This document shows positions 4,916-56,879 of a stretch of DNA of 64,000 nt, piece by piece. The position numbers were made by a program, and so were the translations under genes. The stretch's first letter is position 1. Every line of letters begins with the position of its first letter. The notes under the pieces were generated by a model. It was not told the DNA's origin. It saw only the letters and a list, made by a program, of their open reading frames with translations, and made no database searches. This stretch comes from Gemmatimonadota bacterium (lineage in GTDB: Bacteria; Gemmatimonadota; Gemmatimonadetes; Longimicrobiales; Gaopeijiaceae), in assembly GCA_028873815.1 (NCBI GenBank), contig JAPPNN010000004.1:80829-144828 (forward strand), in the 5' to 3' direction.

Positions 4916-4926
4916 CCTGCTGGCCC

Positions 4927-6375: not shown

Positions 6376-6376
6376 C

Positions 6377-7807: not shown

Positions 7808-7808
7808 G

Positions 7809-9221
7809 CTACGTCACCTCCGCGCGCCGTACACGCGCCACTGCGGCCAGGATTGCTCCCGCCAGCCATGCTCCAAGAACCAGGAGTGACAGGACCCGGT
7901 TGCCCAGCACCCAGCCCAGCGGCGGGGCGGCGTACTGCAGCGGAGGCACCGCTTCCCAGAGTTCGGCCCCGGCGGTGTACGTGAAGTCGCCGGTCAGGGA
8001 GTTCTCGGTCATGTCACCGTTCATCTGCCGCATCAAATCGCGGCGGTACGTCTCGGCAGCGTTGGCGAAGTGCCGGTGCTGCTCGACATCCGTACCGGCC
8101 AGTCCCATCGAGAGCGTGCGCACCGCGAGCAGCGGTGCCGCGACCGCCAACGTCTCGTGCACGACGCCCTGGCGCTCGAACGTGTCCCACAACGCGCCGT
8201 AGTTGCGGTCGAAGATCCGATTGCCGAACTCCTCGCTCTCCTGCAGGTAGACGCCCACCGCGTTAATGGGCAGGTCCTCGACCCGTTCCACTCCGTATTC
8301 GGCAAGCAGATGCTCGGTCGAAGCAGCCCGATCCGGACGAGAGATGTCCCCTGTGCCAGTAGCCATCTCGCTTTCCACGGTACGGGCGAACTCGAAGGCG
8401 GAAGGTGTCGGGTGGAGCCATTTCGACAGGTCCACCGCCACCCGGGGCGCCACGAGCCCGTTCACCACCCACACGGCCAGCAGAACGACCAGTGCGGTGC
8501 GCGCCGAGCGGGCCCACGCGGATACGGCCAGTGACAGCGCCAGGAAAGTGGCAAAGTACGCCAGATAGACGCCGGCGAGGGCGGTGCCACGAGCCAGTGG
8601 GGACGCGGCCGGACCAGGACTCGCGACAACCAGCGCCGCCGCTCCCACCAGCGCGGCCGGCACCAGCAGCAACGCCAGCGCGCTCGAGACGCCGAGTGCC
8701 TTGCCCCCTGCGAGTTCGCGCCGACCGATCCCGGTAGCCAGCAGTTGCCGCAGCGTGCCGCGTTCCCGCTCGCCGGCGAGGGTGCCGAAGGTTAGCAGGA
8801 TGATGAGCAGGGGCACGAGGTGCTGGAGCACCTGTGCCGCCGTCAGCGCCCCAATGCGCTGGGCTGCCGTTGCATCCTGGGCCGGACGCAACATGAAGTC
8901 GTTCTGCCGGTGGGCCTCCAACCACACCGAAGTGCCCGTGTACGGGTCCACGCCCTCGTCGACAAAGGACAGCGCCAGACGCGGCTTGAACGCATAAATG
9001 CCGTAGTGCGCCGCCGAGTGGGGGTTCTTCTCACCCTGCGTCTCCCAGTGCTCGCGGGCGGTGGCCTGCGCGGCCGCGTGCTCCTGCTGCGTGTTGCGTG
9101 CCTGAACCCAACCGTGGCCCAGGGAGATCAGCAACAGCGATCCGACGAGGATCGAGCACCAGCGGAACCGGCCGTCCCGCAGCACGTCGGTAAACTCCTT
9201 GTGGACTATATGCCTGATCAT
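7809..9221 (-). CDS. ABC-2 / DUF3526-type transporter permease (paralogue A)
   Basis: 470 aa. LAGERERGTLRQLLATG motif. 9-nt gap after the ATPase gene. Confidence 0.75.
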   Translation of the reverse strand: MIRHIVHKEFTDVLRDGRFRWCSILVGSLLLISLGHGWVQARNTQQEHAAAQATAREHWETQGEKNPHSAAHYGIYAFKPRLALSFVDEGVDPYTGTSVWLEAHRQNDFMLRPAQDATAAQRIGALTAAQVLQHLVPLLIILLTFGTLAGERERGTLRQLLATGIGRRELAGGKALGVSSALALLLVPAALVGAAALVVASPGPAASPLARGTALAGVYLAYFATFLALSLAVSAWARSARTALVVLLAVWVVNGLVAPRVAVDLSKWLHPTPSAFEFARTVESEMATGTGDISRPDRAASTEHLLAEYGVERVEDLPINAVGVYLQESEEFGNRIFDRNYGALWDTFERQGVVHETLAVAAPLLAVRTLSMGLAGTDVEQHRHFANAAETYRRDLMRQMNGDMTENSLTGDFTYTAGAELWEAVPPLQYAAPPLGWVLGNRVLSLLVLGAWLAGAILAAVARVRRAEVT

Positions 9222-12432: not shown

Positions 12433-12751
12433 GCAATTCTTGCAGCGGTTGTAACCGGGCCGTAGCATGGATCGTAGTACTCAAGACGGAGAGGGGGTCT
12501 GGGCGGCGGCGCGGGGGTGAGGGTTGAGCATTGGGAATGGGCTGGTGGAAAACGCCGCTGACGAGCCGGGGACACGGCTGGCCAGCCCGGCCTCATCTCG
12601 AGAGGAGTTGGGCGATGCTCTTGCTGCCGAGCACGCTCCGGTTCGCAGAAGTTCGCGACACACCTCGCCGTCCTGCGCCCGGTCGGTCACCGGTTTCCGC
12701 TCCGCTCCCTCCGCCATTGGCGATTCTGACGCGTCCATCCACAAAGGAGGA

Positions 12752-15601
12752 ATGATGAGTATTTACTTGTTCGAACTGCGACCGAGGACGGTCCGAAAAA
12801 GGCGCTGGAAACCGGCAAATGTCGTTTCGGGGGCGGCGGCTCTGGCCTTCGCCCTCCTCGCATGCCCCCTGTCCGCACAAACGGGTACGATCAGCGGCGT
12901 CCTCACCAATGGCGAGACGGGAGAACCCCTGTCCAACGTCCAGGTTTCCCTCGAGTTGACCGGGCTCGGAACCCTTACCAACAACCAGGGCCGGTTCCTC
13001 ATCCTGAATGCGCCGGCCGGGGAGCGTGAGGTCGTAGCGCAGCTCATCGGTTTCAGGGAGGAGCGGCGCACCGTGTCGCTCGGCTCCGGAGAGTCGGCGC
13101 TCGTGGACATCTCCATGTATCCTCTGGCGGTTGAACTGGAGGGCGTAGTGGTCACGGGAACGGCCATCGCGGCCCAGAAGCGGGAGGTGGGCAACAGCAT
13201 CTCCCTGGTCACTTCGGATGAACTCCTCTACGCGGGCGCGATCAACCTGGAGGACGCACTCCGCGGACGCGCCCTGGGCGTGAGCATCACGGGAGCGTCG
13301 GGAACGGCCGGCGCGGGATCCGACATCCTGCTCCGGGGCACCAACTCCGTGAACGGGCGCAACCGCCCGCTCATCTACGTCGACGGCGTGCGCATGCCGA
13401 CCGGCACGCTCGAGGACGCCAGCGGCGAGGCCCAGGAGCACGCCACTTTCCTCGGCAGCATTCGCGAGGAGGACATCGATAGGATCGAGATCATCAAGGG
13501 ACCGGCGGCGTCGAGCCTCTACGGCACCGATGCCAGCGCCGGAGTGATCCAGATCTTCACCAAGAAGGGTTCGCCGGGCGCGCCGCGGTGGACCATGAAC
13601 ATGCAGCAGGGCCTCCAGCGCGTTGGTCATGTGGGCCCGAGCATCGACCCCACCGGGCTCCGCGTGAACGACTGCACCCGCCAGTTCAACCACTCGCTCG
13701 AGGAGGGCTACCACTTCAACCGCGACGAGTCGGGAAGCCTGATCGCCGACCCCGGCTGCCCGTCCAGTGGCAGCTGGCTCCGGGACGCCCGCGTCCAGGA
13801 CTACTCCCTATCGGTCAGAGGCGGAAGCGAAGACGTCACATACTACGCCTCCGCGGGCTACGGCGCGACCGAAGGCGTCATCGACCCGAACGAGTCGGAG
13901 GACGTGAACGTCCGGGCGAACTTCACTTTCAACGGATTCGAGAACTTCCAGATCAACCTCAACAACTTCTACACGCGCCGGGACATCACCTGGATCCCCA
14001 ACGGAGACCAGGACGAAGGGCTGCTGTACAACGTGGCCCGCGGTGATGAGGGGGAGACCCCTGACAACGACGACTCGGCGGTGCTGGACCTGACGCAGGA
14101 TCAGGTGGTCAACCACTTCAACTCCAGCGCCAATGTCGACTGGACGCCCGTGGACAACATGCGGCATCGGCTGACCTTCGGCCTGGATTACTCGAACTCC
14201 CACTTCATCACCCAGCGGCCGTGGCTCTTCTGGAACAATCCCCTCGGCACGCGGACCGTGGACATCGAGAACCGCCGGGTGATCACGCTCGACTACGCGG
14301 GTACGTACCTGTTCGAACTCCCCGGGAACTTCACCTCCACCACCTCTGCCGGCGCCCAGTACAACCAGTTCGAGCACCTGGGCAACCGGACCGACGTGGA
14401 GGGCTTCATCGGGCCCGGAGCGAAGGTTCTGGAGAACGCCGAGGAGGTCACGAACTACAACGAGGACAGGGACGCCACCGAGGGCGGCGGCTTCTTCCTG
14501 CAGGAGCAGATCGGGTGGAGGAACCGTCTTTTTGTCAACGTGGGCCTCCGGGCCGACACGCACAGCTCCTTCGGGCGGGAATACACCAAGGACGTGCGGT
14601 TTACGATGTACCCGAAGGCGCAGGCCACGTATACCCTCTCCGACCACGAGTTCTGGCCGTCCTGGTGGGAGACCTTCCGCCTGCGGGGGGCGTACGGCGA
14701 GTCCGGAGAGGCGCCGCCGGCCGATGCCTCGGTAACCATCTTCGAGGCTTCCTCCCTGGCCGACGAGAACAACCTGGGCTTCATCATCAACAACCTGGCC
14801 AACCTCAGGATAGGCCCCGAGCGTGCCAAGGAGTTCGAGGGCGGTTTCGACGCGTCCCTCTTCGACGGAATCCTGGCCCTCAACGGGACCGCCTATTATC
14901 GGAGGACCTTCGACGGGCTGATCAACGTCGCCCCGGCACCCTCCAGCGGCATCGCCGAGTCCATTCCGCAGAACGTTGGCATCTGGGACAGCCGGGGGAT
15001 CGAGGTCGGGTTGGACTTCCTGGTCTTCGAGGGCTTCAGCAGCCGCGTGAGCATCAACGCGAACTACCAGTACAACCACACCAAGATGGTCGAACTGGGA
15101 GATCCGCAGTTCGAACAATTCTCGTTCAACTACCTGAACCGCTACCGGAAAGACCGGCCGATTCCGGCGCTGACAGGCAAGCAGATATGCAACCCCGACG
15201 AAATGGGCGCGCTCCCGACCTACACGGACGACGATGACTGCGTCCTGGACGGCGTCGAGATCGCGAACCATCCCGACACGTTCTTCTACGCGCCCAGCCG
15301 CCCGCCCCACGAAGCGTCGGTGGGCTTCAGGGCCACCCTCTTCAATGACTTCATTCTCGATGCGTTCGGCGTCGCGCAGGTGGGGCACTGGCTCTACGAC
15401 GACCTGGCCCAGGAGCTGGCGGCCGACGGTCTGTGGCCGGAGTGCTGGCCGATCAACGACGCGGTCAACGCCGGTGTCCAGGCCGAGGACCCGAGCCTGT
15501 ACTCCATGTACACCGCGAAGGAGATCGGGCGCTGTTGGGAGAACGAGTCCACAATGAGGACTGGATGGAGCCAGCTGACTACTTCCGGCTCCAGGCCGTG
15601 A
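12752..15601 (+). CDS. SusC/RagA-type TonB-linked outer-membrane receptor, main fragment (interrupted by a frameshift)
   Basis: AAGGAGG RBS then ATG. Signal peptide, CarboxypepD_reg-like domain (GTISGVLTNGETGEPLSNVQVSL), plug (IEIIKGPAASSLYGTDASAGVIQIFTKKG) and long barrel. The frame ends prematurely at 15601, just before the conserved C-terminus. Confidence 0.85.
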   Translation: MMSIYLFELRPRTVRKRRWKPANVVSGAAALAFALLACPLSAQTGTISGVLTNGETGEPLSNVQVSLELTGLGTLTNNQGRFLILNAPAGEREVVAQLIGFREERRTVSLGSGESALVDISMYPLAVELEGVVVTGTAIAAQKREVGNSISLVTSDELLYAGAINLEDALRGRALGVSITGASGTAGAGSDILLRGTNSVNGRNRPLIYVDGVRMPTGTLEDASGEAQEHATFLGSIREEDIDRIEIIKGPAASSLYGTDASAGVIQIFTKKGSPGAPRWTMNMQQGLQRVGHVGPSIDPTGLRVNDCTRQFNHSLEEGYHFNRDESGSLIADPGCPSSGSWLRDARVQDYSLSVRGGSEDVTYYASAGYGATEGVIDPNESEDVNVRANFTFNGFENFQINLNNFYTRRDITWIPNGDQDEGLLYNVARGDEGETPDNDDSAVLDLTQDQVVNHFNSSANVDWTPVDNMRHRLTFGLDYSNSHFITQRPWLFWNNPLGTRTVDIENRRVITLDYAGTYLFELPGNFTSTTSAGAQYNQFEHLGNRTDVEGFIGPGAKVLENAEEVTNYNEDRDATEGGGFFLQEQIGWRNRLFVNVGLRADTHSSFGREYTKDVRFTMYPKAQATYTLSDHEFWPSWWETFRLRGAYGESGEAPPADASVTIFEASSLADENNLGFIINNLANLRIGPERAKEFEGGFDASLFDGILALNGTAYYRRTFDGLINVAPAPSSGIAESIPQNVGIWDSRGIEVGLDFLVFEGFSSRVSINANYQYNHTKMVELGDPQFEQFSFNYLNRYRKDRPIPALTGKQICNPDEMGALPTYTDDDDCVLDGVEIANHPDTFFYAPSRPPHEASVGFRATLFNDFILDAFGVAQVGHWLYDDLAQELAADGLWPECWPINDAVNAGVQAEDPSLYSMYTAKEIGRCWENESTMRTGWSQLTTSGSRP

Positions 15602-45093: not shown

Positions 45094-46878
45094 TCAGGAG
45101 CGCGCTGTTTCTCCAGAATCGACGGTCTCGCCTGCGACAGGCAGGTTGACCGGCAGGGCGGGCCGAACCTCCGAACTCAGGGCAAGGTGGAAGGCCTCCA
45201 TCGCCTCGAAGATTCCATCCCCGGCATGACGGAATTCGTCGGGAATGGCGCGTTGGCGAGCCATTACACGCTGTACCGCGTCCTGTCTGAACTGCTCGGC
45301 CACCCCCGATGCCGCATTGGGCCCCCACCGGGCTTCATTGAACGACGCCAACTCCGAATCCAGGGACGCTTTGAATTCCCGGAGAACAGTCTGCTGGCGC
45401 GTGAGCTTCTCGCAGTGATAACCCATGGCGGCCAGGCGGATCGCCAGCGGCAACAATCGCGGATGGTCCCTCGAGACTTTCGCGACGTAGCGTGAGAACA
45501 CCGGCAACTGGTCCGGGGTGAGGCGCCGCCGAATCCCCATGATGCTCAGGTAGAGCACGTGCTTGCTCGCTGGCTTGTAGATGTGCGGTACCGGATTGAG
45601 GTTGTCCAGCAGGGTCAGGCAGCGGTCAAAGTAGTTCTCCAGCGTCGAATCGTAGATGGTTCCGACGACCCGGAGGTATCCCTCCACCAGCGTCCTGGGA
45701 TCCATCTGCGGCTTGAAGTTCAGCGCAGTTGCGTCGATTTCGACGGGTTTGTCCAGCAAACGATTCTCGCGCTCCAGCCGTGCCCACAGATTCGTTCCCT
45801 TGAGTGCGGTCAGCAACCCGACCAGCGCGATCGGAATCCCGGCCCCCTGAATGAACTCGATCTGCGCATCGAACGCGTTGTCGTCGTCTTCGTCGAGGCC
45901 CAGGATGAAGCCGCCCAGAACCATCATCCCCTTCTGCTGAATCTTCCGGACGGACGTGAACAGGTAGTTGTCGTCGCGCATGTCGAGATTCTGAGGCTTC
46001 TTCATCTTCTTGAGCGCTTTCGGATTGGGCGTCTCGATACCCACGAAGACAGCGTCGAAACCGGCGTCGATCATGTCGTCCATCAAGTCGTTCATCCGGA
46101 CAAGATTGACGCTCGCTTCGGTGAACAGCGCATAGGGATGGCCACGCTCCTTTTGCCACTCGGCGATCACCGGGAGGAGCCTCGAGACTTCGCGCTTGTT
46201 CCCGATGAAGTTGTCGTCGACCAGGAACAGCGGTCCCCGCCAGCCCAGCTCGTACAGGTGGTCGAACTCGGCCACCATCTGTTCCGGGGATTTCGTTCGC
46301 GACACGCGGCCGTACAGCTTCGTGATGTCGCAGAACTCACAGTCGAAGGGGCATCCCCGCGAGAACTGCAGACACATGGAGTGATACTCGTTCATGTCGA
46401 TGAGGTCGAAGCGCGGAACCGGAGAAAGGGTCACATCCGGTTTTCGCGGCGCACGATAGACAGCTCGCGCGTTTCCGCTCTCCAGGTCGTGAAGGAAGGT
46501 CGCGAACGTCTCCTCGACCTCATCGAGGACGAAATGGTCGATTCCCTCCATCTCTTCGTGAAACGTGGTCGGGTGGGGCCCGCCGGCGACGACCGGAACC
46601 CGCGCGCGGTTGCAGCGCTCAACGACTTGCTCAAGTGAGGGGCGCTGCGGAATCATGGTCGATGTGAATGCCAGATCCGCCCACTCCAGATCGGCGTCTT
46701 CGAGGGGGGTCACGTTGAGATCGACCAGACGCAGGTTATACCGGGACGGGAACATCGCGGCGAGTGTGAGCAGACCCAGTGGAGGGAACGCCGCCTTGAT
46801 ACCCAGCAGATCCAGAGCATAATTGTTGCCCCAGTAAGTGGGAGGATGCTTCGGGTAGAGCAGGAGGGCATTCTTCAT
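45094..46878 (-). CDS. B12-binding-domain radical SAM protein with DUF4070-like C-terminus
   Basis: N-terminal cobalamin-binding-like region (PPLGLLTLAAM...VVAGGPHPT), radical SAM cluster motif CPFDCEFC, and a long C-terminal extension as in class B rSAM / DUF4070 proteins. Confidence 0.9.
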   Translation of the reverse strand: MKNALLLYPKHPPTYWGNNYALDLLGIKAAFPPLGLLTLAAMFPSRYNLRLVDLNVTPLEDADLEWADLAFTSTMIPQRPSLEQVVERCNRARVPVVAGGPHPTTFHEEMEGIDHFVLDEVEETFATFLHDLESGNARAVYRAPRKPDVTLSPVPRFDLIDMNEYHSMCLQFSRGCPFDCEFCDITKLYGRVSRTKSPEQMVAEFDHLYELGWRGPLFLVDDNFIGNKREVSRLLPVIAEWQKERGHPYALFTEASVNLVRMNDLMDDMIDAGFDAVFVGIETPNPKALKKMKKPQNLDMRDDNYLFTSVRKIQQKGMMVLGGFILGLDEDDDNAFDAQIEFIQGAGIPIALVGLLTALKGTNLWARLERENRLLDKPVEIDATALNFKPQMDPRTLVEGYLRVVGTIYDSTLENYFDRCLTLLDNLNPVPHIYKPASKHVLYLSIMGIRRRLTPDQLPVFSRYVAKVSRDHPRLLPLAIRLAAMGYHCEKLTRQQTVLREFKASLDSELASFNEARWGPNAASGVAEQFRQDAVQRVMARQRAIPDEFRHAGDGIFEAMEAFHLALSSEVRPALPVNLPVAGETVDSGETARS

Positions 46879-46885
46879 CGTTCGC

Positions 46886-49408
46886 TCACGACACCGCCGC
46901 TGTGCCGAACCGGCTGGCGACGAACTTGCGGTAGTCGGCGAATGCGGCTTTCACCTTGTCGCGGGTCAGGCCGTAGTCCGCGATATCGTACTTGTGCCGC
47001 GTCTCCAGGCGCCGTTGCTCCTCCTGCTTCCAGAACCAGGCTTTCATCGCCTCAATCGACTCGGCCTCCATCGGCCAGCCGAACCGGCGATAGATGCCGA
47101 CCACAACTGCGATGGGGTCGCTGACCAGATCGTAGAAGCTCACATCGTGCCAGCGGTGTTCCAGTTCGGGGTGTGACCGCCGAAACCGAGTCGCTCGGTC
47201 AAGCATGCGACTCATTGCTCTCAGTTGTTCGCTACCGAGCTCCGTGCGGGGGCGCGGTTCGCTGATATCCGACCGGAAGCGCTCCACCAGACTACACCAG
47301 GACCCCATGAATTCGACGGGTTCGCGATGCGTCTGAATGAAAAGGGCGTCGGGATACGCCTCGAGCAGGGCGCCCAGTTCCATCAGATGGGTTGGCATCT
47401 TGAAGATCCATTGGCCCTGGCTGCCCGGGTGACAGGCCCTTCGCTGGTAGTTGTAGTGCTGCATGGTGCGGCGATGCACGTGGTAGGCCTCGCGGGTGCC
47501 GCTTTCCTCGAGCCAGCGCTCGTACTCGGGCAACCGATATCGAGTCGCGAACACCCATGTCTTGAGCGACAACCTGAGGATCGGGATATCCTCTTCCGGT
47601 TCGTCGAGCCCGGCATGGTGAAGGCCCGCGAGAGTATCTACGATGCTCGCCGCTGCGAATACGTCCGCCGCCTTGATACGGCGGGGATCCCGGGGAGTGC
47701 CGACGACCGCTGCGTAGCCGCCGTCCGGAATGACGGGCTCGACGTATTCGTAGGCCCGCAAGGCCCAGAACCGCCGGTCCCGGGCCAATAGACGGTGCAG
47801 GAAGGTCGTGCCCGTCCTGTTGATGCCCACGATGAACACTGGCTGTTCGATTGGCTGCCGCCCGATCTCCGGCAGCCGCATGCGCTCTCCGGCCAGTTCG
47901 GCGTTGTTGCGCAGTATTCGGCACAGGTCGAACACGCAATGCCCGATGCGCTTTGCCAGCAGGCCGGCTTCGGGAGCGTTGAAGCCCTCGACGAGACGGG
48001 CCAATCCCTCCAGCATCCACTCGGGGTAGGTGGTGTCGAAGGACACGCCGTTGTCCCTGGCGTATCGCCGGGCCTGCTTCAGCACGCTGTCCAGGCTGAC
48101 CCCCAGCTGCGGAATCGCCTGCGGCCACTCTTCCTCACGGTCCCTGACCCAGCGGTTGTAGCGGACATACCTGGTGAGAGGACCCGGCCAGTTGATGTCA
48201 CCACGACAGTCCTCTCGAATGGCCCGGTCGGAGACCGGCAGCGTCTGGACCGTTTCGGAGCCCCGAAACCAATAGGGGGCGAAGTGATCGAACAGGGGCC
48301 AGCTGCGGGCCATCGGAGACGCGTCCCCGTGCGCCTGGCAGGCGCGCTTGAAAACGGCGTAGGGAACCTCCGGATAATTGAGGCCGAACTCCGCGAGCTG
48401 CATGGCCCGGTACGACGGCGCGTTGTTGCAGCAGCTGTAGATAGTGAAGCGCCGATTCACATTCATGGAAATGTCGGTGCACATGCGCGTCAGCGTATCC
48501 GCCGGATCGTCGGTGGCCCGCATGGTGAACCCCTGCGGAATCATTCCGACCTGGACCGCCGCCGCGAAGACAAGCTGTGGAGGGGTGTCCGACTGGGCGT
48601 AACCGGTGGAGGCCATGGTGGTTTGCCCGAAACGGAAGACCGCCGCCGGCAAGCCGACCTGATGCGCGAACAGGACGGCCTGTTCCGCCACAAGCTTGCT
48701 CCAGGCATACCCGAGCAACCCGAGCGGCATCACCCTCTTCATCCGACCCAGGTCCGGCTGCGCATGGTCGCCGATGTGACAGTCGCGGTATTCGCCGGCA
48801 AAGGAGTGCACGTACTCGGGGAACACACCCATGGTCGAGACGTGAAACAGGTGCTTGAGGCGGACACTCAGACACAGCCGGAGGACCTCGCGCACTCCGA
48901 GAGCGTTTACCTGGCGGAGAGACCGGTAGGACGCGATCAGGTTCGGGTTGGCCGCAAGGTGGTAGACAGCGTCGATTTGCCGGCACAGCCGGTCGAAGTC
49001 GTCGTTCGAGAGCCCGAAGCGGGACTGCGAGACATCGCCGGCGTAAACGCGGATTCTCGACGTGAACGCATCGTCCCAGGTCTCCGCGTGTTCCATGTTG
49101 GCGCGCAGTCGCTCGAAGCCGCGTTCCGCCGATTCGGCTCGCACGACGCAATGGACCGTCACTTCGGACTCGTGAGCGAGCAGGTCTCGCACGAGGAAAC
49201 GACCGACGAATCCGGTTGCGCCGGTAACCAGGACATTGCGAAAGTCGGCGGGCGAAACCGCGGGAGCCGGGGTTGCATCGGTTAGCGCGGCGCGAACGGA
49301 TCGGCGCAGAGTGGTGAGATCGCGCTGGCATTCGGGCGGCAGGGTCCCTGTCAGCGGTGGCACCTGGTGCCTTGTTGCAGATGCAGTGGCCATGGCGGAA
49401 TCAGTCAC
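46886..49408 (-). CDS. fusion protein: thioester-reductase-type NAD(P)-binding domain plus sulfotransferase domain
   Basis: N-terminal VLVTGATGFVGRFL...VHCVVRA...YHLAANPN (terminal reductase / NAD_binding_4 pattern). C-terminal PVFIVGINRTGTTFLHRLL (PAPS 5'-phosphosulfate-binding loop of sulfotransferases). The GTG start overlaps the PKS stop by 8 nt; an alternative ATG lies at 49393. Confidence 0.8.
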   Translation of the reverse strand: MTDSAMATASATRHQVPPLTGTLPPECQRDLTTLRRSVRAALTDATPAPAVSPADFRNVLVTGATGFVGRFLVRDLLAHESEVTVHCVVRAESAERGFERLRANMEHAETWDDAFTSRIRVYAGDVSQSRFGLSNDDFDRLCRQIDAVYHLAANPNLIASYRSLRQVNALGVREVLRLCLSVRLKHLFHVSTMGVFPEYVHSFAGEYRDCHIGDHAQPDLGRMKRVMPLGLLGYAWSKLVAEQAVLFAHQVGLPAAVFRFGQTTMASTGYAQSDTPPQLVFAAAVQVGMIPQGFTMRATDDPADTLTRMCTDISMNVNRRFTIYSCCNNAPSYRAMQLAEFGLNYPEVPYAVFKRACQAHGDASPMARSWPLFDHFAPYWFRGSETVQTLPVSDRAIREDCRGDINWPGPLTRYVRYNRWVRDREEEWPQAIPQLGVSLDSVLKQARRYARDNGVSFDTTYPEWMLEGLARLVEGFNAPEAGLLAKRIGHCVFDLCRILRNNAELAGERMRLPEIGRQPIEQPVFIVGINRTGTTFLHRLLARDRRFWALRAYEYVEPVIPDGGYAAVVGTPRDPRRIKAADVFAAASIVDTLAGLHHAGLDEPEEDIPILRLSLKTWVFATRYRLPEYERWLEESGTREAYHVHRRTMQHYNYQRRACHPGSQGQWIFKMPTHLMELGALLEAYPDALFIQTHREPVEFMGSWCSLVERFRSDISEPRPRTELGSEQLRAMSRMLDRATRFRRSHPELEHRWHDVSFYDLVSDPIAVVVGIYRRFGWPMEAESIEAMKAWFWKQEEQRRLETRHKYDIADYGLTRDKVKAAFADYRKFVASRFGTAAVS

Positions 49409-52400
49409 CCGCGACTGAACCGGCGTTCGGCACCGTCGACGAAATCACTCGCCGCGCGGATCCGTCGAAACCGGGAGCCGGGGCGGGTTCACCCTTTGGG
49501 AAGTGGTCCTCGAGTCTGTTCGCAAACGGAGAGCTCCGGCGCCGCGTCCGCTGCCCGAACGGTTCGGCCGCGGCGGCCGAACCGTCATCCTCGGCCACCG
49601 TGACGGCTTCGTGGTCCGAGGCCGCTCCCTCGACGATCGTCTGTGCCAGGGACAGAGCCGTCGCGGTGGTCATGAGTTCCAGGGCGCTGACCTGATGGTT
49701 GTACTGTGTCTGGATAAACGCTCCCAGTTCTGCGACCGAAATCGAAGTGAGCCCGAAGCTCGCCAGGGGCTCGGTCATGTCGCCCTCCTCGTGCCCGCAC
49801 AGTTCGGCTACCTTCGCCGAGATCTGGGCGACCACGCCTTCGATGGTGAGATCGCTTCCCAATTCGACCTCGAATGCCGCCTGATTGTTCACCAGACGAC
49901 CGTTGCGCATGTAGTCGGCGGATTCAACGGACCAGGGCGGATTCGAGAACAGCGCGGTGACGACATGGTCGCGTTCGGCCATGGCGCGCAGGGCGTAGTC
50001 CAGGTTCGCGATCGCGAAGTTGGCGCTGACGGTCGTCATCCCGGCCGCTCTCATCATCCGCATGACATGGAGGCTGCGCGCCGCCATCCCGACCTCGGTC
50101 ACGGGACCCAGGTTGTACGCGAAACCCGGGAGCCCCCGCTGGCGCCGGTACTCGGCCAACCCGTCCAGGAAGCTGCTGGCGCCGCTGTAGTTGATCTGCC
50201 CCATGTTGCCGAATGTCGACGCGATCGACGAGAACAGGACGAAGTAGTCCAGGTCGTACCCCGCGGTGGCTTGGTGCAGGTTCAGGGCGCCCCGGGCCTT
50301 CGGGGCGAACACGCGCGCCAGGGAATCAGGCGATGTGTCGAGGAAGGATCGGTCCTCCAGCGTGCCGGCGAGGTGGAATACACCCTTCAGGGGCTTCCTG
50401 AGCGCCCCGATGCAGCGTTGCACGTCCGCTTCGTCCCGCACGTCACCGGGCACGATGTCGATCTCGTATTCCTGCGGCATCTTGGAGAGCGTGGTGATCT
50501 GGCGGATCCATTCGACGTCGCGGCTGCGGGTGGGATCGCGGTCCATCAGCGTCAGGTGCCGCGCCCCGGCGGCGATCAGGTAAGGCACAAAGCGAAGCCC
50601 GAAACCGCCCAGGCCGCCGGTCACCACATAGGTTGCGTCGGGATCCAGGAAGGGCCGCGTGTCTGCAATGCCGAACCCCCGATCCATCGCGTCCTCCGGG
50701 GCCTGCAAGACCAGCTTGCCCTGGTGCTGGCCCGTGGTCATCAGGCGGAGGGCCTGCGCGTAGTCGCGGTACGGGAAGACCGTTAGCGGGGGCGGCGCGA
50801 CCGCTCCCTCAGCCATCAGGTCCATGCAGGCCTGGGAAAGCACATGCGACAGCACCGGGTCGTCGAGCATCAGCCGGTCCACGTCGATCGCCGCGAAGCG
50901 CAGGTTCTTGCGGAAGACCCGCATGCTGAGCGCGTTGTCGGTGTAGATGTCGACCTTCCCGATCTCGCAGTGCCAGCCGGAGGGGCGCAGCGCCTTGAGG
51001 CAGAGCGCAATGTGATGGCCCGCCAGCGAGTTCAACACGACATCGACACCTTCGCCTCCCGTAGCCTCCATCAGATCGTCGTACCAGCTGTGGCTGTGCG
51101 AATCGAAGGCCCCGCGCACGCCCATCGCCAGCAACTGCTTGCGCTTGCTTTCGTTTCCCGCCGTGGCGTAGATCTCCGCGCCGACGTGCCTGGCCAGCGC
51201 GATCGCGGCCTGTCCGACACCACCCATCGCCGAATGGATGAGTACGCGCTGGCCCTCCTGCAGGCGGGCGAGGTGGATCAGCGAGTAGTAGGCGGTCACG
51301 CAGACGGACAACGCCGACGCGGCCTCCTCCATGCTCAGACGGGGTGGTTTCAGGAAGGCGAGGTGTTCGTTTACCACCACCCGGTTGGCGATACAGCCGC
51401 CCGCCGTGAGCGCCACCTCGTCTCCGACCTTCAGGCGCTTCACCTCGGGGCCGGCGCGCCGCACCACCCCGCTGGCTTCGATGCCGACTTCGCGGCCGAG
51501 CGCCGAGCGCTCGTACGCCATGGCGGGCAAAAGTCCCAGCGTGACCATGACGTCGCGGAAATTCAGGGCCGCCGCCGCGATCTGGACCTCCACATCGGCC
51601 GGACCGAGGGCCGGCGGTTCGCAGGTCGTCATCTGGAGGCCGCTGACCTGCCCGGGGTTGTCCAGGCGAAGGCGGTACGGGGGATCGTCGCCGTCCGGAA
51701 CGAGCGGTGCGCGCTGCCGTACGCTGACGATGCGCGGCACCCACGGACGCCGCTCCCGGATCGCCAATTCGCGCTCCCGCGGGTCGCATCGGACGATCCC
51801 GGCCAGTGCCTCCAGGTCTTCTGCCGCCCCGATGTCCACGAGGCGGAAGTCGATGCGAGTGTCCTCGGCGAGGAGTTCCAGGGCTATACTGCGCACGGCC
51901 CCCCACAGCGCACTTCCACGCGGATCGTCGACGCCGCATATCGCGCCGCGCGTAATCACCGTCAGACGGCACTCGCGAGTCGCACTCTCGAGTCGTAACG
52001 GTGCCAAGGCCTGGAGAAACGCCACAAACTGCCACACGATCCGCTCCCCGGTGGGATCCCCGGGGTCGGTGCCGACAAAGAGATCGATCGCCTCAAGTTC
52101 TGCCGTCCCCGGCCATTCCTCCAGCCGGACAAAGTCGCCGGCTTCGAAGGATTTCCAGGGGATGTGATGCACCATCGGCGAATCGAGGTGCTGGATCCAG
52201 GCCTGGGCCGGGGTGTCCGGTTCGCCGATCACCCAGCGGGGACCCCGAGCCGCAGTGCCTTCGATCGGGTCGGCCCCCGCCACGGCTTCGGCACCGTGCA
52301 CGACCTCCGTCGCATCCTGCAATCCGGCCAGAGTGTCCGGGGCCTGCAGCAGCGTCGTGCGCGAGCCCGCATGCAAAGTCGTCCAGCCGCGGCCCGGTTC

Positions 52401-54740
52401 AATGACATCACCCTCCTTGTGGCATACAACCGCAAGGCCGCCGGCGACCATAAGCCGATGGACGAGCGCCCACTGGTCGGGCCCGAAATCGCCGGCCTCC
52501 CGATGAAGCAGCACAAGTTCAGCTCCTGCCGGCCGCAACAGCCCTTTGGCCAGATCAGGCGGGTGGGCCTGGCTGTCGATCAGGTCAAGCGTCTCGAAGC
52601 GAAGCGCGGCGTCGTGATGGTTGAAGGCGTCGTACAGCGCGCGGGTGGACTCTTCGTCCCCTCCGACGAGCCAGTATTCCGTCTGTGCCTCCGGGCCCGA
52701 CAGGCGCTCAAGACACTGGTTCAGAATGGCCTGGGCGGACTCATGCCGACCCGCGATCTCGATCACGTGGCAGGCGTAGTGTTCGCCCAGGGCGCCCTCC
52801 TCCAGCGCCGCAATCAGCGCGGCGGGATCGACTTCGCCATCCCGGATTGCGTCTCCGACCGGAGGCGTTGGCGGCACGAATTTGGGCTGCCAGCGGATTA
52901 GGTGCTTGCTGTCCGGTACATCGCTCCAGCGGGGATTGCTGTTGAAGGAATGATATTCACCGATGTGTGCGATCAGCTTGCCCGTAGCGCGATCGTAGAA
53001 GCTCAGGCGACCGATATACAATTCGCCAAGCGGCTTGTTGTACTGACCCCGCTCGTCCACGTCGAACCAGTCTCCGGTGTCGACCAGAAAACAGCTGATG
53101 CGCGGCCCCGTCGGCGGACGCAGGAAGGTGATGTCGCACGCCCGCTGCGGCATGGAGAAGAAATCCGGCAGGCGCATCAGGTAGCGCAGAAAGATCTGGA
53201 GCCCCCCGTCGGTCAACGGGGGGTACAGGAGATAGCCTTCCTCCCGGCCGGAAGCCCACAGCTCGTCGTCCACCTCGATATCCAGAAGGAGGTCCGTTGA
53301 ACCGGAATCCATCTCGATCTGCCGGACGCTGCGGAACTCGGGCCCGAACTCGAAGGCATCTCCCACAACCGCTTCGATGTGGTCGTAGAACTCCTCTCCC
53401 GTTGAAAGGGGCCGGGGATCGAAGTCGGAGGCCAGGACATCGTCGAGCGTAGGGAGGGTGTCGATGGCGTAGTCCTTGTCCACCCGGCGGACCCGGCCCC
53501 GGCAGTGCAGGGTGCCTTCATCGTCGTTCTCGAAGGAACGCGTGGAGATGGTGAAGGTGAACTGATCGGGAGCGTTCGGAACCGGGAAGAGGGCCGTCTG
53601 CAGACGAACCGGGGTCCTGCCGACGGGCGTATGCTGCAGGAACTCGATCTCGTCGATGTGGACCGGATCGCCGGCGAACGCCTGCAGGAGCAACTCGATA
53701 TAGCCGGCGGCGGGGATGATCGGCGCCCGATGGACCCGGTGGTCGGTCATCCAGGGAAAATCTCTTTCGGATAGCCGCGACTCGAAGAGAATGTGGTCGC
53801 AGGCGACCCGGTGGCCGACGAGCGGGCCGTGCGAGTACTCGCCGCGCTGGACAAACATCTCGTCGTCGACCAGATCGTCGTGGGTCGTGGTCTGCTCCTG
53901 CGGGTGGCCGGGAAGGAGATGAGCGATCGGTTTCGGCTGCGGGTACTGCGATGCAAAGTCGAGCTCGACGCCGGTGCGGTACAACGCCCCCAGCGCCTCC
54001 TGGAAGCCGAGGCACACATCCTCGTCCTTCATGAGCGTGGGAATACACGCCGGGACGGTGGCGCCGCCTTCCAGGCACTGCCGGATCAGAGGTTGCAGAG
54101 CTCCGTGCGGTGCGATTTCCAGGACGATGTCGGGTCGATGGTCCCGTTTCACCGTGTCCATCGCGGCTGCAAAGCGGACCGGTTCGCGAATGTTCGACCA
54201 CCAGTATGCGGCGTCCAGACGCTGCGTTGCGCTGCCGGTCACGGAGGACACCATGGGGACATCGACGTCGAAGGCGCAGTCGTCCAGGAACGACAGCGAA
54301 GCCATGACATCGTCGTGCAACGGATCCATCGCCGTCGAGTGGAATGCGATGTTGCCGGGAATCAGCCGATTCTGCAGGTCTCGGCGGTCCAGCTCCGCCA
54401 TGACGGGCCCGAGCGCGCCCCCCTTGCCGCAGATGACGGTATTGGCCGGCGAGTTCTCGCAGGCGATTTCAACCTGGGCGGGTCTGTGGTTCCCGGAACG
54501 GAACGAGACACTCAGCTCGTCCAGCAAGTCCTGGACACCGGCTCTGTCCAGCCCGATCGCCAGCATCCGACCGGAGCCGGCCACCCGCTGCTGCAGCGTG
54601 GCGCGGTGGTAGACCAGATGCGTGGCCTCCGCGAGGGACAGGGCCCCGCAGGCGTACGCGGCGGCTACTTCGCCGAGCTGTGTCCAACAACGCAGTCCGG
54701 CTGGACGCCCCAGGTCGAGAGCAGTTCCACGAGGGCGCAT
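49401..54740 (-). CDS. type I polyketide synthase, downstream portion: rest of AT, DH, degenerate MT-like / structural region, ER, KR, ACP
   Basis: LGEVAAAYACGALSL (second half of the AT GHSLGE motif). IAFHS. DH motif DHRVHRAPIIPAAGYIE. MT-like relic VIEIAGRHE. ER motif HSAMGGVGQAA. KR motifs YVVTGGLGGFG and NYSGAS. ACP motif FGLTSISVAEL. The first ~17 codons of the listed ORF precede the true join with the KS ORF. Confidence 0.9.
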   Translation of the reverse strand: MRPRGTALDLGRPAGLRCWTQLGEVAAAYACGALSLAEATHLVYHRATLQQRVAGSGRMLAIGLDRAGVQDLLDELSVSFRSGNHRPAQVEIACENSPANTVICGKGGALGPVMAELDRRDLQNRLIPGNIAFHSTAMDPLHDDVMASLSFLDDCAFDVDVPMVSSVTGSATQRLDAAYWWSNIREPVRFAAAMDTVKRDHRPDIVLEIAPHGALQPLIRQCLEGGATVPACIPTLMKDEDVCLGFQEALGALYRTGVELDFASQYPQPKPIAHLLPGHPQEQTTTHDDLVDDEMFVQRGEYSHGPLVGHRVACDHILFESRLSERDFPWMTDHRVHRAPIIPAAGYIELLLQAFAGDPVHIDEIEFLQHTPVGRTPVRLQTALFPVPNAPDQFTFTISTRSFENDDEGTLHCRGRVRRVDKDYAIDTLPTLDDVLASDFDPRPLSTGEEFYDHIEAVVGDAFEFGPEFRSVRQIEMDSGSTDLLLDIEVDDELWASGREEGYLLYPPLTDGGLQIFLRYLMRLPDFFSMPQRACDITFLRPPTGPRISCFLVDTGDWFDVDERGQYNKPLGELYIGRLSFYDRATGKLIAHIGEYHSFNSNPRWSDVPDSKHLIRWQPKFVPPTPPVGDAIRDGEVDPAALIAALEEGALGEHYACHVIEIAGRHESAQAILNQCLERLSGPEAQTEYWLVGGDEESTRALYDAFNHHDAALRFETLDLIDSQAHPPDLAKGLLRPAGAELVLLHREAGDFGPDQWALVHRLMVAGGLAVVCHKEGDVIEPGRGWTTLHAGSRTTLLQAPDTLAGLQDATEVVHGAEAVAGADPIEGTAARGPRWVIGEPDTPAQAWIQHLDSPMVHHIPWKSFEAGDFVRLEEWPGTAELEAIDLFVGTDPGDPTGERIVWQFVAFLQALAPLRLESATRECRLTVITRGAICGVDDPRGSALWGAVRSIALELLAEDTRIDFRLVDIGAAEDLEALAGIVRCDPRERELAIRERRPWVPRIVSVRQRAPLVPDGDDPPYRLRLDNPGQVSGLQMTTCEPPALGPADVEVQIAAAALNFRDVMVTLGLLPAMAYERSALGREVGIEASGVVRRAGPEVKRLKVGDEVALTAGGCIANRVVVNEHLAFLKPPRLSMEEAASALSVCVTAYYSLIHLARLQEGQRVLIHSAMGGVGQAAIALARHVGAEIYATAGNESKRKQLLAMGVRGAFDSHSHSWYDDLMEATGGEGVDVVLNSLAGHHIALCLKALRPSGWHCEIGKVDIYTDNALSMRVFRKNLRFAAIDVDRLMLDDPVLSHVLSQACMDLMAEGAVAPPPLTVFPYRDYAQALRLMTTGQHQGKLVLQAPEDAMDRGFGIADTRPFLDPDATYVVTGGLGGFGLRFVPYLIAAGARHLTLMDRDPTRSRDVEWIRQITTLSKMPQEYEIDIVPGDVRDEADVQRCIGALRKPLKGVFHLAGTLEDRSFLDTSPDSLARVFAPKARGALNLHQATAGYDLDYFVLFSSIASTFGNMGQINYSGASSFLDGLAEYRRQRGLPGFAYNLGPVTEVGMAARSLHVMRMMRAAGMTTVSANFAIANLDYALRAMAERDHVVTALFSNPPWSVESADYMRNGRLVNNQAAFEVELGSDLTIEGVVAQISAKVAELCGHEEGDMTEPLASFGLTSISVAELGAFIQTQYNHQVSALELMTTATALSLAQTIVEGAASDHEAVTVAEDDGSAAAAEPFGQRTRRRSSPFANRLEDHFPKGEPAPAPGFDGSARRVISSTVPNAGSVAGD

Positions 54741-56557
54741 TGAATCATGAAGATCGCGGGCTGCGCCAGCTGGACCTCGTTCAATTCCTCCTGGCTCGCG
54801 TTGAAGCAGGCGTCGCGCAGGGACACTTCGCAGTGCTCACGCCACTCCTCCTCGACGGCATCGACCACGCGCCGGAAGACGGGGTCCGCGTCGTACAGCG
54901 CTTGTCCGCAACCCGCCCACTGCGTGCCCTGTCCGGAGAACACCATGGCCACGCGGGGCTCACCTTCTTCCACGGTGGAGACGGGTTCCGGGTCGTCCAC
55001 AAACGCGTCCAGTGCCTTGGCGAGCCGGCCCCGGTCTCGCACGGCGAACGCGGCACGCGCCGCAAAATGACTGCGTCGTCGGCCGAGATTGCCCGCCAGG
55101 GTGTAGAGGTCGTTTTTCCGCTCGTCGAGAACGGTCCGCAGGCTCCGTGCGCTCTCAACCAGAGCGTTCGTCGTACGTGCGGACAGCGGAACCATGTATC
55201 CGGCGTCGGGGGCCAGGGGCTCCGACCACACCCTTGCTTGCGCTGGCCGATACTCCCTCACCACGCAGTGCCCATTGGCGCCGCCGAACCCGAAGGAGTT
55301 GATCCCGACTACGACCGGACGGTCTGGGAAGGGTTCGCAGGCGGTCTGCACCTGCATCGGGCAGCTGTCGAAGTCGATCTCGAGGTTAGGAGCCAGGAAA
55401 TTCCTGGAAATGGGCGCAAAAGCTCGTTGCCGCATCATGAGAACGACTTTCAGCAGAGCGGCGCTGAACGCCGCTGCTTCGAGGTGCCCCACATTGCTCT
55501 TCACGCTGGCCACGCGCAGCGGGACCTCGCGTTCGACGCCCCCGAACGCCTCGGCTATCGCATTGCCCTCGATGCGGTCTCCTACGACGGTGCCGGTCGC
55601 ATGCGCCTCGATATAGTCGAAGTCCCCCGGCTCCAGTCCCGCCCGAGCGCAGGCCGCGCGCATCAGTTCGACCTGCGAATGACGGGTCGGCGCGGTGATG
55701 TAGCGCCCCTGCGCCATTCCCGCGGCGTCGTCGGCGGTACCGGCCGTGTTGACCGCGGTGGCCTCGATAACCGCGAAGATGTGGTCGCCGTCCCTCTCGG
55801 CCGCTTCCAGTGGCTTGATCGCGAAAACGAAAGCCCCTTCCGCCCGCATGTATCCGTTGGCGTCGGCATCGAATGAATGACAACGGCCGTCCGGACTGAT
55901 CACACCGAGTGCATTGAACGAGGCGCTGCAGCGTGCCGACCCCAGATAGGTCGCGGCCCCCACAAGAGCCCGGTCACAGTCGCCTTGCCGTAGCGAGTTC
56001 ATGGCCGTGTGCAGCGCGGTCAGGGACGCCGAGCAGGCCGTGGAGCACGCGATCGACGGCCCCATGAGGTTGAGGTGGTAGGAGATGCGGTTCGCCAGCA
56101 TCGAGGCGTCGATGCTCAGAATGGAGAATTCGTTGGTGCCGTAAAGGGCCCGCCAATTGGCAGTCGACGCGACCTGCGCCCCGATGAAGACGCCCGTTGG
56201 GCTGTTGCGTAGCGAGTTCAGATCCCAGCCGGCGTGTTCGCAGCTTTCCCATGAGCAGCCCAGCAACATCCGGATCTGCGGATCCATGTAGGCCATCTCA
56301 TTGCGCGAGACCCCGAACAGGCTGCCGTCCATCCGCTGCTCGCCCTCGTCCCGGATCAGCCCTTCGTACGCGCTGCCGAAGCGACCGGGTCCGGAGAAGT
56401 CGCCGATCGGCTGGTAGCCTCGACCGTACCGGTCGGTGACCGGCTCCCGGACGACCTCGCGTCGGCTGAGAAGGCGCCAGAAGTCGCTGTCGGTACGAAT
56501 CCCGCCGGGCATTCGGTAGGAGTACCCGACGATAGCAGCGGGACCAGGGGGGCTCAT
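54665..56557 (-). CDS. type I polyketide synthase, upstream portion: KS plus the N-terminal half of AT, ending at GHS
   Basis: KS active-site motifs STACSASL, EAHATGT and KSNVGHLEAAA. AT start VAMVFSGQGTQWAGCG. The ORF stops 3 codons after ...CVVGHS, in the middle of the AT nucleophile motif. Confidence 0.9.
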   Translation of the reverse strand: MSPPGPAAIVGYSYRMPGGIRTDSDFWRLLSRREVVREPVTDRYGRGYQPIGDFSGPGRFGSAYEGLIRDEGEQRMDGSLFGVSRNEMAYMDPQIRMLLGCSWESCEHAGWDLNSLRNSPTGVFIGAQVASTANWRALYGTNEFSILSIDASMLANRISYHLNLMGPSIACSTACSASLTALHTAMNSLRQGDCDRALVGAATYLGSARCSASFNALGVISPDGRCHSFDADANGYMRAEGAFVFAIKPLEAAERDGDHIFAVIEATAVNTAGTADDAAGMAQGRYITAPTRHSQVELMRAACARAGLEPGDFDYIEAHATGTVVGDRIEGNAIAEAFGGVEREVPLRVASVKSNVGHLEAAAFSAALLKVVLMMRQRAFAPISRNFLAPNLEIDFDSCPMQVQTACEPFPDRPVVVGINSFGFGGANGHCVVREYRPAQARVWSEPLAPDAGYMVPLSARTTNALVESARSLRTVLDERKNDLYTLAGNLGRRRSHFAARAAFAVRDRGRLAKALDAFVDDPEPVSTVEEGEPRVAMVFSGQGTQWAGCGQALYDADPVFRRVVDAVEEEWREHCEVSLRDACFNASQEELNEVQLAQPAIFMIQCALVELLSTWGVQPDCVVGHSSAK

Positions 56558-56597
56558 GAGGCGGTTCCTTGCCTCCTCGCCGGCGGGTGCGGCGATG

Positions 56598-56879
56598 CTA
56601 TGAAGCGTCGACTACTCCCTGAACCGCCTGGCCGGCGGTGTCGAACATCATCTGGAGCCACTTCTTGCGCCGCGCGCGGAAGTCCTTGACCAGATCCCAC
56701 AGATCGTCACGGATCTGTTCGGTCGCTGCTTCCCGTAGCTCATCGGACAGGGTGGTGTTGTTCTCGAACTCGTACTTTGCGATCGCGAAGTCGGCGACGT
56801 CGAGGATGTTCTCACCGACGATCTGCAGATCGACGGCTTTTTTCAGTGTGATGGGTCTGTCGAAGCTGCGGTTGTCCAT
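56598..56879 (-). CDS. small acidic hypothetical protein (93 aa), first gene of the PKS operon
   Basis: Clean ATG-to-TAG ORF with GC3 bias. 40 nt upstream of the KS start on the same strand. No signal peptide and no recognisable motif. Confidence 0.55.
   Translation of the reverse strand: MDNRSFDRPITLKKAVDLQIVGENILDVADFAIAKYEFENNTTLSDELREAATEQIRDDLWDLVKDFRARRKKWLQMMFDTAGQAVQGVVDAS

Follow-up and report, generated by a model that had tools for sequence, protein, structure and literature searches.

The window analysed here, a 64,000-nucleotide (nt) stretch of contig JAPPNN010000004.1 from the Gemmatimonadota bacterium assembly GCA_028873815.1, carries between positions 45094 and 56879 a tightly packed group of genes for a single-module polyketide synthase (PKS) and the enzymes that go with it. 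Judged by published gene order, gene sizes and sequence motifs, this gene set is almost certainly the swf cluster of sponge-associated bacteria, in which swfA encodes a mono-modular PKS/fatty acid synthase (FAS) with ketosynthase (KS), acyltransferase (AT), dehydratase (DH), enoylreductase (ER), ketoreductase (KR) and acyl carrier protein (ACP) domains, swfB a thioester-reductase/sulfotransferase (R-ST), and swfC a B12 radical S-adenosylmethionine (rSAM) enzyme (Della Sala et al. 2013, PMC3908369). The open reading frames (ORFs) in the window are:

56598-56879, minus strand: small acidic ORF of 93 amino acids (aa), isoelectric point 4.62 (ORF call)
54665-56557, minus strand: 5´ ORF of swfA, 630 aa, with the KS, the KS-AT linker and the start of the AT (Pfam)
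49401-54740, minus strand: 3´ ORF of swfA, 1779 aa, genuinely coding from about 54674 downward (Pfam)
46886-49408, minus strand: swfB, 840 aa, thioester reductase and sulfotransferase (Pfam)
45094-46878, minus strand: swfC, 594 aa, cobalamin-binding radical SAM enzyme with a C-terminal DUF4070 (Pfam)

All five ORFs are co-directional. A gap of 40 nt separates the small ORF from swfA, swfB overlaps the swfA stop by 8 nt, and 7 nt lie between swfB and swfC. These coordinates and spacings are exactly those of the original prediction, which was made from the sequence alone, and its PKS, R-ST and rSAM domain calls were likewise recovered by a Pfam profile search. The prediction also described one PKS module; there is indeed a single module, but as assembled a 1-nt deletion in the AT motif breaks it into a pair of ORFs. 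A scan of the cluster for promoters and terminators gave nothing beyond the shuffled expectation.

We assign the cluster to swf because the gene set and its order match Table 1 of the published description (PMC3908369), because all of the SwfA signature motifs named there are present, GHSSGE once the lost base is put back, and because the SwfA-SwfB adjacency holds in essentially all of 82 related loci, which reach down to 51% SwfB identity and underlie all neighbourhood counts given below. In fosmid pPS11G3 the order is a 92-aa ORF (a POR_0546 homologue), SwfA (2349 aa), SwfB (839 aa) and SwfC (585 aa) (PMC3908369), and the window has the same small ORF-swfA-swfB-swfC order. The sizes agree as well: SwfA measures 2349-2361 aa in the published copies and 2385 aa here once repaired, SwfB 832-839 and 840 aa, and SwfC 585 and 594 aa. 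With the published copies (fosmids pPS11G3 and pPSA11D7; POR_0547-0550) the window shares DPQ[I/V]R, HATGT, QCALVEL and IAFH; putting back the lost base would also give GHSSGE. Pfam matches over the two swfA ORFs give a single KS-AT-DH-ER-KR-ACP module with neither loading module nor thioesterase (TE), as had been predicted; an R-ST fusion stands beside swfA, and a B12 rSAM protein with a CX3CX2C motif, which is optional in the family, completes the set. The window copy differs from the published ones in that its swfA is frameshifted at the AT active site, and in that the STAS and permease genes flanking pPS11G3 are absent from the window.

The original prediction had implied an unnamed, novel gene set, and this does not hold, since the set was already published as swf. 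The literature match is close but comes without a product: we found no identification of the Swf product in the literature from 2013 to 2023. Over that period, a 2014 update withdrew the assignment of swf to Poribacteria, a survey of 2022 reported clusters resembling swf, independent of taxonomy, in metagenome-assembled genomes (MAGs) of Nitrospirota, Latescibacterota and Acidobacteriota, and a 2023 paper placed the cluster in 'Thalassonella'. The hosts named in the literature we found are thus Nitrospirota, Latescibacterota, Acidobacteriota and 'Thalassonella', whereas the window copy is from a Gemmatimonadota bacterium. The nearest loci belong to MAG series whose names suggest sponge microbiomes, for example Ca. 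Palauibacter irciniicola and Ca. Poriferihabitaceae, and from this kinship the host is most probably sponge-associated.

The 630-aa ORF matches ketoacyl-synt, Ketoacyl-synt_C, KAsynt_C_assoc and positions 3-91 of the Acyl_transf_1 profile, and the 1779-aa ORF supplies the rest of the AT followed by DH, ER, KR and PP-binding. The domains of this second part, all on the minus strand, are:

to about 53949, minus strand: remainder of the AT (Pfam)
about 53846-52974, minus strand: DH (Pfam)
about 52871-52329, minus strand: pseudo-methyltransferase, ΨMT (AlphaFold model and Foldseek)
about 52241-51759, minus strand: pseudo-ketoreductase, ΨKR (AlphaFold model and Foldseek)
about 51641-50694, minus strand: ER (Pfam)
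about 50651-50079, minus strand: KR (Pfam)
about 49856-49629, minus strand: ACP (Pfam PP-binding)

The signature motifs lie at aa 92 (DPQIR, in place of DPQQR), aa 319 (HATGT, in place of HGTGT), aa 606 (QCALVEL) and aa 737 (IAFH). HATGT is conserved to at least 90% in each column of an alignment of 62 full-length SwfA sequences, and QCALVEL has been described as a 'unique' SwfA motif (PMC3908369). Conserved throughout the same 62 sequences are the KS cysteine and histidine, the AT motifs, the DH histidine, the GGLGGFG and the S/Y/N residues of the KR, and the serine of the ACP GLTS motif; the SwfA ACP can be phosphopantetheinylated by Svp (PMC3908369). The AT is predicted to be specific for malonyl rather than methylmalonyl units.

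A FAS-like or mycocerosic acid synthase (MAS)-like character had been proposed for this PKS, and its best solved homologues are indeed MAS (9d2z, E 2e-224) and animal FAS (2vz8, 1e-164). The resemblance is architectural only, for the NCBIfam Pks2 and PKS models give SwfA scores that fall far short of their cutoffs. What it shares with MAS and MAS-like PKSs (including Pks2 of sulfolipid-1) and with animal FAS is the iterative KS-AT-DH-ΨKR-ER-KR-ACP architecture, and with animal FAS also a pseudo-methyltransferase (ΨME)-like domain at the same position. Unlike animal FAS it has no TE, unlike MAS its product would be released by a separate R-ST protein with no Pap-type acyltransferase, and unlike both the MAS-like enzymes and FAS all of its scores are far below the equivalog cutoffs.

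The region between DH and ER (431 aa, holding the VIEIAGRHE sequence) has no Pfam match at E<=10 and no phmmer match in the PDB at E<=1. An AlphaFold model built with 25 homologous fragments has a mean pLDDT (predicted local distance difference test) of 68 overall and about 80 in its first α/β domain. Foldseek matches this model, at E 1e-8 to 1e-5, to the modifying regions of PsoA and LovB, to the ΨME-ΨKR-KR tri-domain of human FAS, and to many class I SAM methyltransferases, including the C-methyltransferase domains of CurJ, the citrinin synthase and DszA. Throughout the family its motif I has E-(I/F)-A-G-R in place of GxGxG, and the domain is the least conserved of the folded domains (56% mean identity, 17 of 181 columns invariant, compared with 80% identity for KS and ER). 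Because a methyltransferase fold is combined with a degenerate motif I and the lowest conservation of the folded domains, the best reading of the model is a structural relic akin to the ΨME of animal FAS, in keeping with the earlier view that the in-cis methyltransferase-like region looks dead. This degenerate fold between DH and ΨKR is a new detail, missing from the 2013 description. At the other end of the protein, the tail after the ACP (49401-49625, residues about 2311-2385) contains much Ala, Gly, Pro and Ser and is little conserved (31% mean identity, 4 of 75 columns invariant); it might serve SwfB as a flexible docking or linker segment.

The frameshift in swfA falls on the AT nucleophile. 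One G has been lost from the TCG GGC of the GHSSGE motif (54665-54676, minus strand; sequence and alignment), where the DNA now reads CAC AGC TCG GCG AAG TAG and the frame ends in GHSSAK at a TAG stop (54665-54667). The upstream ORF accordingly terminates with VVGHSSAK, and the downstream frame picks up at GEVAAAYACG. In an alignment with 10 relatives the gap, at about 54673-54674, is found in the window alone; restoring one G yields GHSSGEVAAAY, as in all 10, and the junction is in frame in 71 of 72 assessable relatives. We conclude that the frameshift is either an assembly or consensus error or a very recent mutation, because the repaired SwfA (2385 aa) agrees with the other 61 sequences at 610 of the 611 positions where these do not vary, the sole change being L to V (the relatives have a median of 2 private changes at such positions), because the ratio of nonsynonymous to synonymous substitution rates (dN/dS) is low (0.08-0.17 for both swfA halves against five relatives, 0.08-0.35 for all pieces of the cluster), and because the 7.1 kb of swfA hold no second stop or shift. 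Unless the missing base is an assembly or sequencing error, the deletion interrupts swfA and leaves the cluster non-functional as assembled. The POR copy of swfA is also split, and there a sequencing error was suspected (PMC3908369). Exact-pattern searches of the JGI metagenomes for the AT site of the same species, with GG or GGG, returned no match. Programmed recoding was considered and rejected: there is no slippery heptamer, the close relatives are all in frame, and other indels at this site would need shifts of opposite sign.

The alternative that fares best is that the deletion is real, so that swfA is a recently inactivated pseudogene and the organism makes no Swf product; we regard this as rather unlikely. 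In its favour, the deletion breaks the frame exactly at GHSSGE, decayed swfA genes are found elsewhere (many breaks in L064, a 1.6-kb insertion in L053, truncation next to an integrase in L083, two frameshifts in L007; L numbers denote the related loci), independent indels lie no more than 42 nt from the site in three other assemblies, above chance at an approximate p of 6e-4, and a Pfam scan of ten further ORFs of the window, four of them ABC-2 permeases and six flanking the cluster, gave no sign of split genes. The retained invariant residues, the low dN/dS of both halves and the lack of a second lesion argue the other way, as do the intact swfB, swfC and small ORF, and short stretches of G are also where a consensus typically drops a base. 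Of the earlier concern that the PKS might be an inactivated pseudogene, then, the frameshift itself stands, yet the repaired protein keeps all but one of the residues that the family does not vary.

Independent frame-disrupting indels are found in four swfA genes within 42 nt around the AT nucleophile motif:

window 54665-54720: loss of one G
L020, about 4840-4850: gain of one G in an invariant TGGGGC run
L063, about 2975-2985: gain of one G in an invariant TGGGGC run
L007:2195-2215: 7-nt tandem duplication at the G-H codons

Close relatives of two of these loci, L059 for L020 and L076 for L063, are in frame at the site, and the remaining swfA lesions are scattered along the gene. That 4 of about 13 small events fall inside 42 of 7155 nt underlies the scan-statistic p just given, which is approximate and refers to a window chosen post hoc. 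Mapping of the longest stretches that swfA genes from different species share exactly lent no specific support to a mis-join at a repeat common to several genomes: long shared k-mers are far commoner in the ER (around nt 5550) and the C-terminal region of the KS (around nt 1050-1260) than at the AT site (around nt 1884). We think it improbable that swfA has a mutational hotspot here, at which symbionts living in sponges turn the gene off again and again or phase-vary it; if it were true, the Swf lipid would be costly or conditionally counter-selected in the host. Larger lesions were also observed, namely, in L083 (ERZ23495468 scaffold_242), a swfA that is shortened to 1450 aa and immediately follows a gene for a phage-type integrase, an insertion of about 1.6 kb at residue ~516 in L053, and fragments with at least 4 frame changes in L064.

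SwfB combines a thioester reductase (aa ~58-376; NAD_binding_4, 7e-52) with a PAPS (3´-phosphoadenosine 5´-phosphosulfate)-type sulfotransferase (aa ~511-827; Sulfotransfer_3, 1e-36). The original proposal of an R-ST fusion acting in trans is borne out insofar as both domains sit on one separate 840-aa protein. Against the TIGR01746 thioester-reductase domain model it scores 206.9 bits, the cutoff being 213. The nearest solved structures are the MxaA reductase 4u7w (4e-38) and, for the sulfotransferase, 2zq5 (6e-40) and 2z6v (3e-27), each entered in the PDB under the name 'putative uncharacterized protein', which we take to be mycobacterial Stf sulfotransferases. Invariant in 18 SwfB homologues are TGxTGxxG, Y234/K238, the loop G-x-N-R-x-G-T-T and R695...S703. 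The N-terminus thus resembles the reductase (R) domains of MxaA (myxalamid) and of carboxylic acid reductases, with the TGxTGxxG and YxxxK of the short-chain dehydrogenase/reductase (SDR) family, but unlike MxaA-type R domains it is set apart from the carrier protein and fused to a sulfotransferase. Because SwfB has no carrier domain of its own, its reductase would take the acyl-S-ACP in trans.

The swf system has in common with CurM and the olefin synthases that its PKS assembly line is followed by a PAPS-dependent sulfotransferase; unlike there, no TE is present and the sulfotransferase is fused to a trans-acting thioester reductase rather than placed in line after the ACP. The acceptor would differ as well, a β-hydroxyacyl-ACP in CurM and, for SwfB, probably a primary alcohol arising from reduction. 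The in-line ACP-ST-TE of the CurM type is lacking here, there being no thioesterase and the sulfotransferase being on a separate protein. The only other contiguous R and ST domains described are at the C-terminus of coccidian multimodular type I FAS/PKSs (PMC3908369); by description these are eukaryotic and uncharacterised and close off a giant multimodular synthase in cis, whereas SwfB is a separate bacterial protein.

More than 440 homologues of the R-ST fusion were found, nearly all of the 120 listed being full length, and SwfB relatives occur in 433 species-level genomes from at least six bacterial lineages. The closest carriers are Gemmatimonadota/Longimicrobiales MAGs, with L003 at 94% identity for SwfB, 89-90% for SwfA, 91% for SwfC and 84% for the small ORF; others belong to Ca. 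Palauibacter, Nitrospirales, Alpha- and Gammaproteobacteria, Latescibacterota, Acidobacteriota and Ca. Poriferihabitaceae. Wherever the contig allows, swfA lies directly upstream of swfB, so an R-ST protein beside a single-module PKS, the neighbourhood that the original prediction proposed to check, is conserved, while swfC varies: the arrangement is A-B-C in 22 loci, A-C-B in 25 and C-A-B in 7, swfC is downstream on the opposite strand in 4, and it is missing within 10 kb in 23.

The neighbours offer independent support for a sulfotransferase used with PAPS. A CysN-CysC fusion (the sulfate adenylyltransferase GTPase subunit joined to adenosine 5´-phosphosulfate kinase), which serves PAPS synthesis, adjoins swf in 11 loci (L020, L032, L034, L036, L042, L044, L057, L059, L064, L066 and L081; for example L032:12668-14470) from Gemmatimonadota, Nitrospirales and Alphaproteobacteria. 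A stand-alone SDR matching the NAD-dependent epimerase/dehydratase and NAD_binding_4 families stands beside swf in 11 Gemmatimonadota loci (L012:1479-2552 and 10 others; L083:9102-10208 is also cited), and could be an aldehyde reductase that completes reduction to the alcohol.

Distant swfA-swfB pairs were seen in the JGI metagenome contigs L085 (Ga0126381_100002106), L088 (Ga0302325_10010375) and L086, with about 50% SwfA and 42-44% SwfB identity. They keep HATGT and DPQ[IL]R, have GHSAGE and no QCALVEL, and have neither swfC nor the small ORF nearby. On these features they resemble a sister family that falls outside the swf clade of sponges, so the core swfA-swfB pair is not confined to the swf clade proper.

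Comparison of window 46886-49408 and the rest of the cluster with L003, L004, L019 and L016 points to a mosaic. With L019, identity is 86-93% for SwfA, SwfC and the small ORF yet only 63% for SwfB; relative to L004, SwfB is 94% identical, SwfA 79-86% and the small ORF 49%; and relative to L003 the synonymous divergence (dS) of swfB is 0.10, that of swfA and swfC about 0.5-0.7. As these identity and dS patterns are mosaic across the cluster, swfB has evidently undergone exchange separately from swfA and swfC.

SwfC matches the Pfam families B12-binding, Radical_SAM and DUF4070 and contains CPFDCEFC (CX3CX2C) in its translation; its dN/dS against relatives is 0.08-0.15. In these domains and this motif it is like the class B rSAM methyltransferases (HpnP/HpnR, CysS, TokK), and the 2013 tree grouped it with methyltransferases, nearest to HpnP (PMC3908369). 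Unlike them, its matches to HpnR, PhpK, CysS and TokK are weak and all far below the family cutoff. The best scores against cutoff are 64.7/750 for ApyD, 53.7/650 for HpnR and 50.2/600 for PhpK, methylase and non-methylase B12-rSAM families (BchE, AprD4, the ladderane-type lipid rSAM) score alike, and sequence matches in the PDB (9ccb, AprD4, CysS, TokK) are also weak. The suggestion that this enzyme is a C-methylase is compatible with its domain architecture, but the cutoff of every curated methyltransferase model lies far above its score and the role is one that we infer; we hold it tentatively, at somewhat less than an even chance. Since the position of swfC varies and the gene is missing near swfB in a good number of loci, SwfC is an optional tailoring enzyme.

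The 93-aa ORF is the equivalent of ORF19 of pPS11G3 and of POR_0546. It has 47 homologues (52-94% identity), all unannotated, and no Pfam or NCBIfam match. An AlphaFold model (pLDDT 87) predicts a two-helix hairpin with helices at 12-39 and 46-92, for which Foldseek finds no PDB match with E<0.4. The ORF lies within 10 kb of swfB in 44 of the 82 loci, sometimes downstream and on the opposite strand. A gene for a STAS domain of the anti-anti-sigma type often precedes it (for example L004:2048-2383); in L002 it is fused to a STAS domain (12571-13218; 47% identity over 81 aa), and in some Acidobacteriota it makes up the C-terminal domain of such a STAS fusion. This association with STAS is a new detail.

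Our best overall explanation, which we consider reasonably probable, is that this is a swf copy in which a FAS/MAS-like chain is released by the R-ST protein as an alkyl sulfate, with SwfC as an option; for the alkyl-sulfate product taken by itself the chances seem about even. Each step of the scheme is one that we infer. SwfA, as a single-module, fully reducing iterative type I PKS, would build a long, largely saturated acyl chain from malonyl units on its own ACP. The SDR-type thioester reductase of SwfB would take this acyl-S-ACP in trans and reduce it via the aldehyde to the primary alcohol, to which the sulfotransferase would transfer sulfate from PAPS to give the alkyl sulfate. The cobalamin-dependent SwfC, where present, would most likely C-methylate an unactivated carbon of the chain, the in-line methyltransferase-like domain of SwfA being a presumed relic like the ΨME of animal FAS. 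The 93-aa helical-hairpin protein would be a conserved accessory linked to STAS domains. The sulfated, possibly methylated long-chain product of the original prediction is chemically reasonable and the same as the published hypothesis, a possibly methylated alkyl sulfate (PMC3908369), and the CysN-CysC linkage adds support to it.

Several observations weigh against this explanation. As assembled, the frameshifted nucleophile motif predicts that the window encodes no functional acyltransferase. The whole swf cluster expressed in E. coli BAP1 gave no new metabolite, and widespread alkyl sulfates are not known from sponges (PMC3908369). Judged by sequence, the R domain may carry out a two- or a four-electron reduction, and the extra SDR of the 11 Gemmatimonadota loci might perform the second reduction step. 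SwfC falls under the cutoff of every curated NCBIfam rSAM model, and about 23 of the 82 loci lack swfC within 10 kb. Public entries of the homologues do not bear the swf name and have only generic ones ('SDR family oxidoreductase').

Should the R domain go no further than the aldehyde, or not be what releases the sulfated group, the sulfotransferase might instead modify a mid-chain or β-hydroxyl that incomplete reduction had left, or a non-lipid acceptor, and a sulfated hydroxy-aldehyde or diol would result in place of a simple primary alkyl sulfate. Skipping of reductive steps is possible in iterative PKSs (PMC3908369), and the aldehyde-reductase-like SDR in 11 loci would fit a SwfB that does not finish the four-electron reduction alone in all lineages. 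The covalent fusion of R and ST is kept in more than 400 proteins, however, which argues that the two act consecutively on one substrate. MxaA, the nearest solved reductase, makes primary alcohols, as reportedly found by Barajas and colleagues in 2015. We consider this outcome unlikely.

Still a little less likely, in our view, is that sulfation activates a hydroxyl as a leaving group, in the manner of CurM and the olefin synthases, and that the product is a hydrocarbon or alkene or arises by alkyl transfer (an ether-type product). Sulfate is the leaving group in the off-loading of curacin A, as cited in PMC3908369, and the same paper's remark that widespread sponge alkyl sulfates have not been reported would be explained, but its authors also point out that standard lipid work-up would miss alkyl sulfates. 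Moreover, there is no thioesterase, the sulfotransferase is fused to a reductase on a separate protein and not in line after the ACP, and the flanking genes across phyla show no conserved partner able to use a sulfate ester. A PKS of the WcbR/RkpA type making a capsular polysaccharide lipid anchor, which has a similar single-module architecture and was the original annotation of the 'poribacterial' copy (PMC3908369), is very improbable given that the published KS phylogeny sets Swf apart, with DPQIR/HATGT as opposed to DPQQR/HGTGT (PMC3908369), and that no capsule synthesis or export domains occur in the six flanking ORFs scanned. The alkyl-sulfate scheme is the one that we retain.

Around the cluster, the six flanking ORFs match, by Pfam, a BNR/sortilin-like family, an amidase, DUF2891 and two β-lactamases, one being without a match. 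The swfB-swfC stretch has the lowest GC content of the window (0.62). None of the PAPS-synthesis, STAS, extra SDR or permease genes that neighbour swf elsewhere lies within the 64-kb window. At 3524-9221 on the minus strand there are four tandem paralogous ABC-2 permease genes with DUF3526 (524, 503, 476 and 470 aa), neighbouring ORFs of which overlap. An assembly prone to frameshifts overall was considered in view of these overlaps and rejected, as the ORFs are intact ABC-2/DUF3526 paralogues and not split genes.

The window is one more swf copy, broken as assembled, and leaves the picture of swf unchanged; what it contributes to a known, uncharacterised family is a host that is probably a member of the Gemmatimonadota and an AT motif that is broken. 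For those hunting the product, the linkage of CysN-CysC to swf in 11 loci indicates that PAPS should be supplied, the small ORF (with its STAS partner where present) should be included, SwfC can be treated as optional, and the sequence of the AT site should be checked before cloning. The swf genes are among the most widespread PKS systems of sponge microbiomes, and a sulfated long-chain alcohol, perhaps with methyl branches, would, if that is what they make, be a candidate for a symbiosis lipid or biomarker common to unrelated symbionts.

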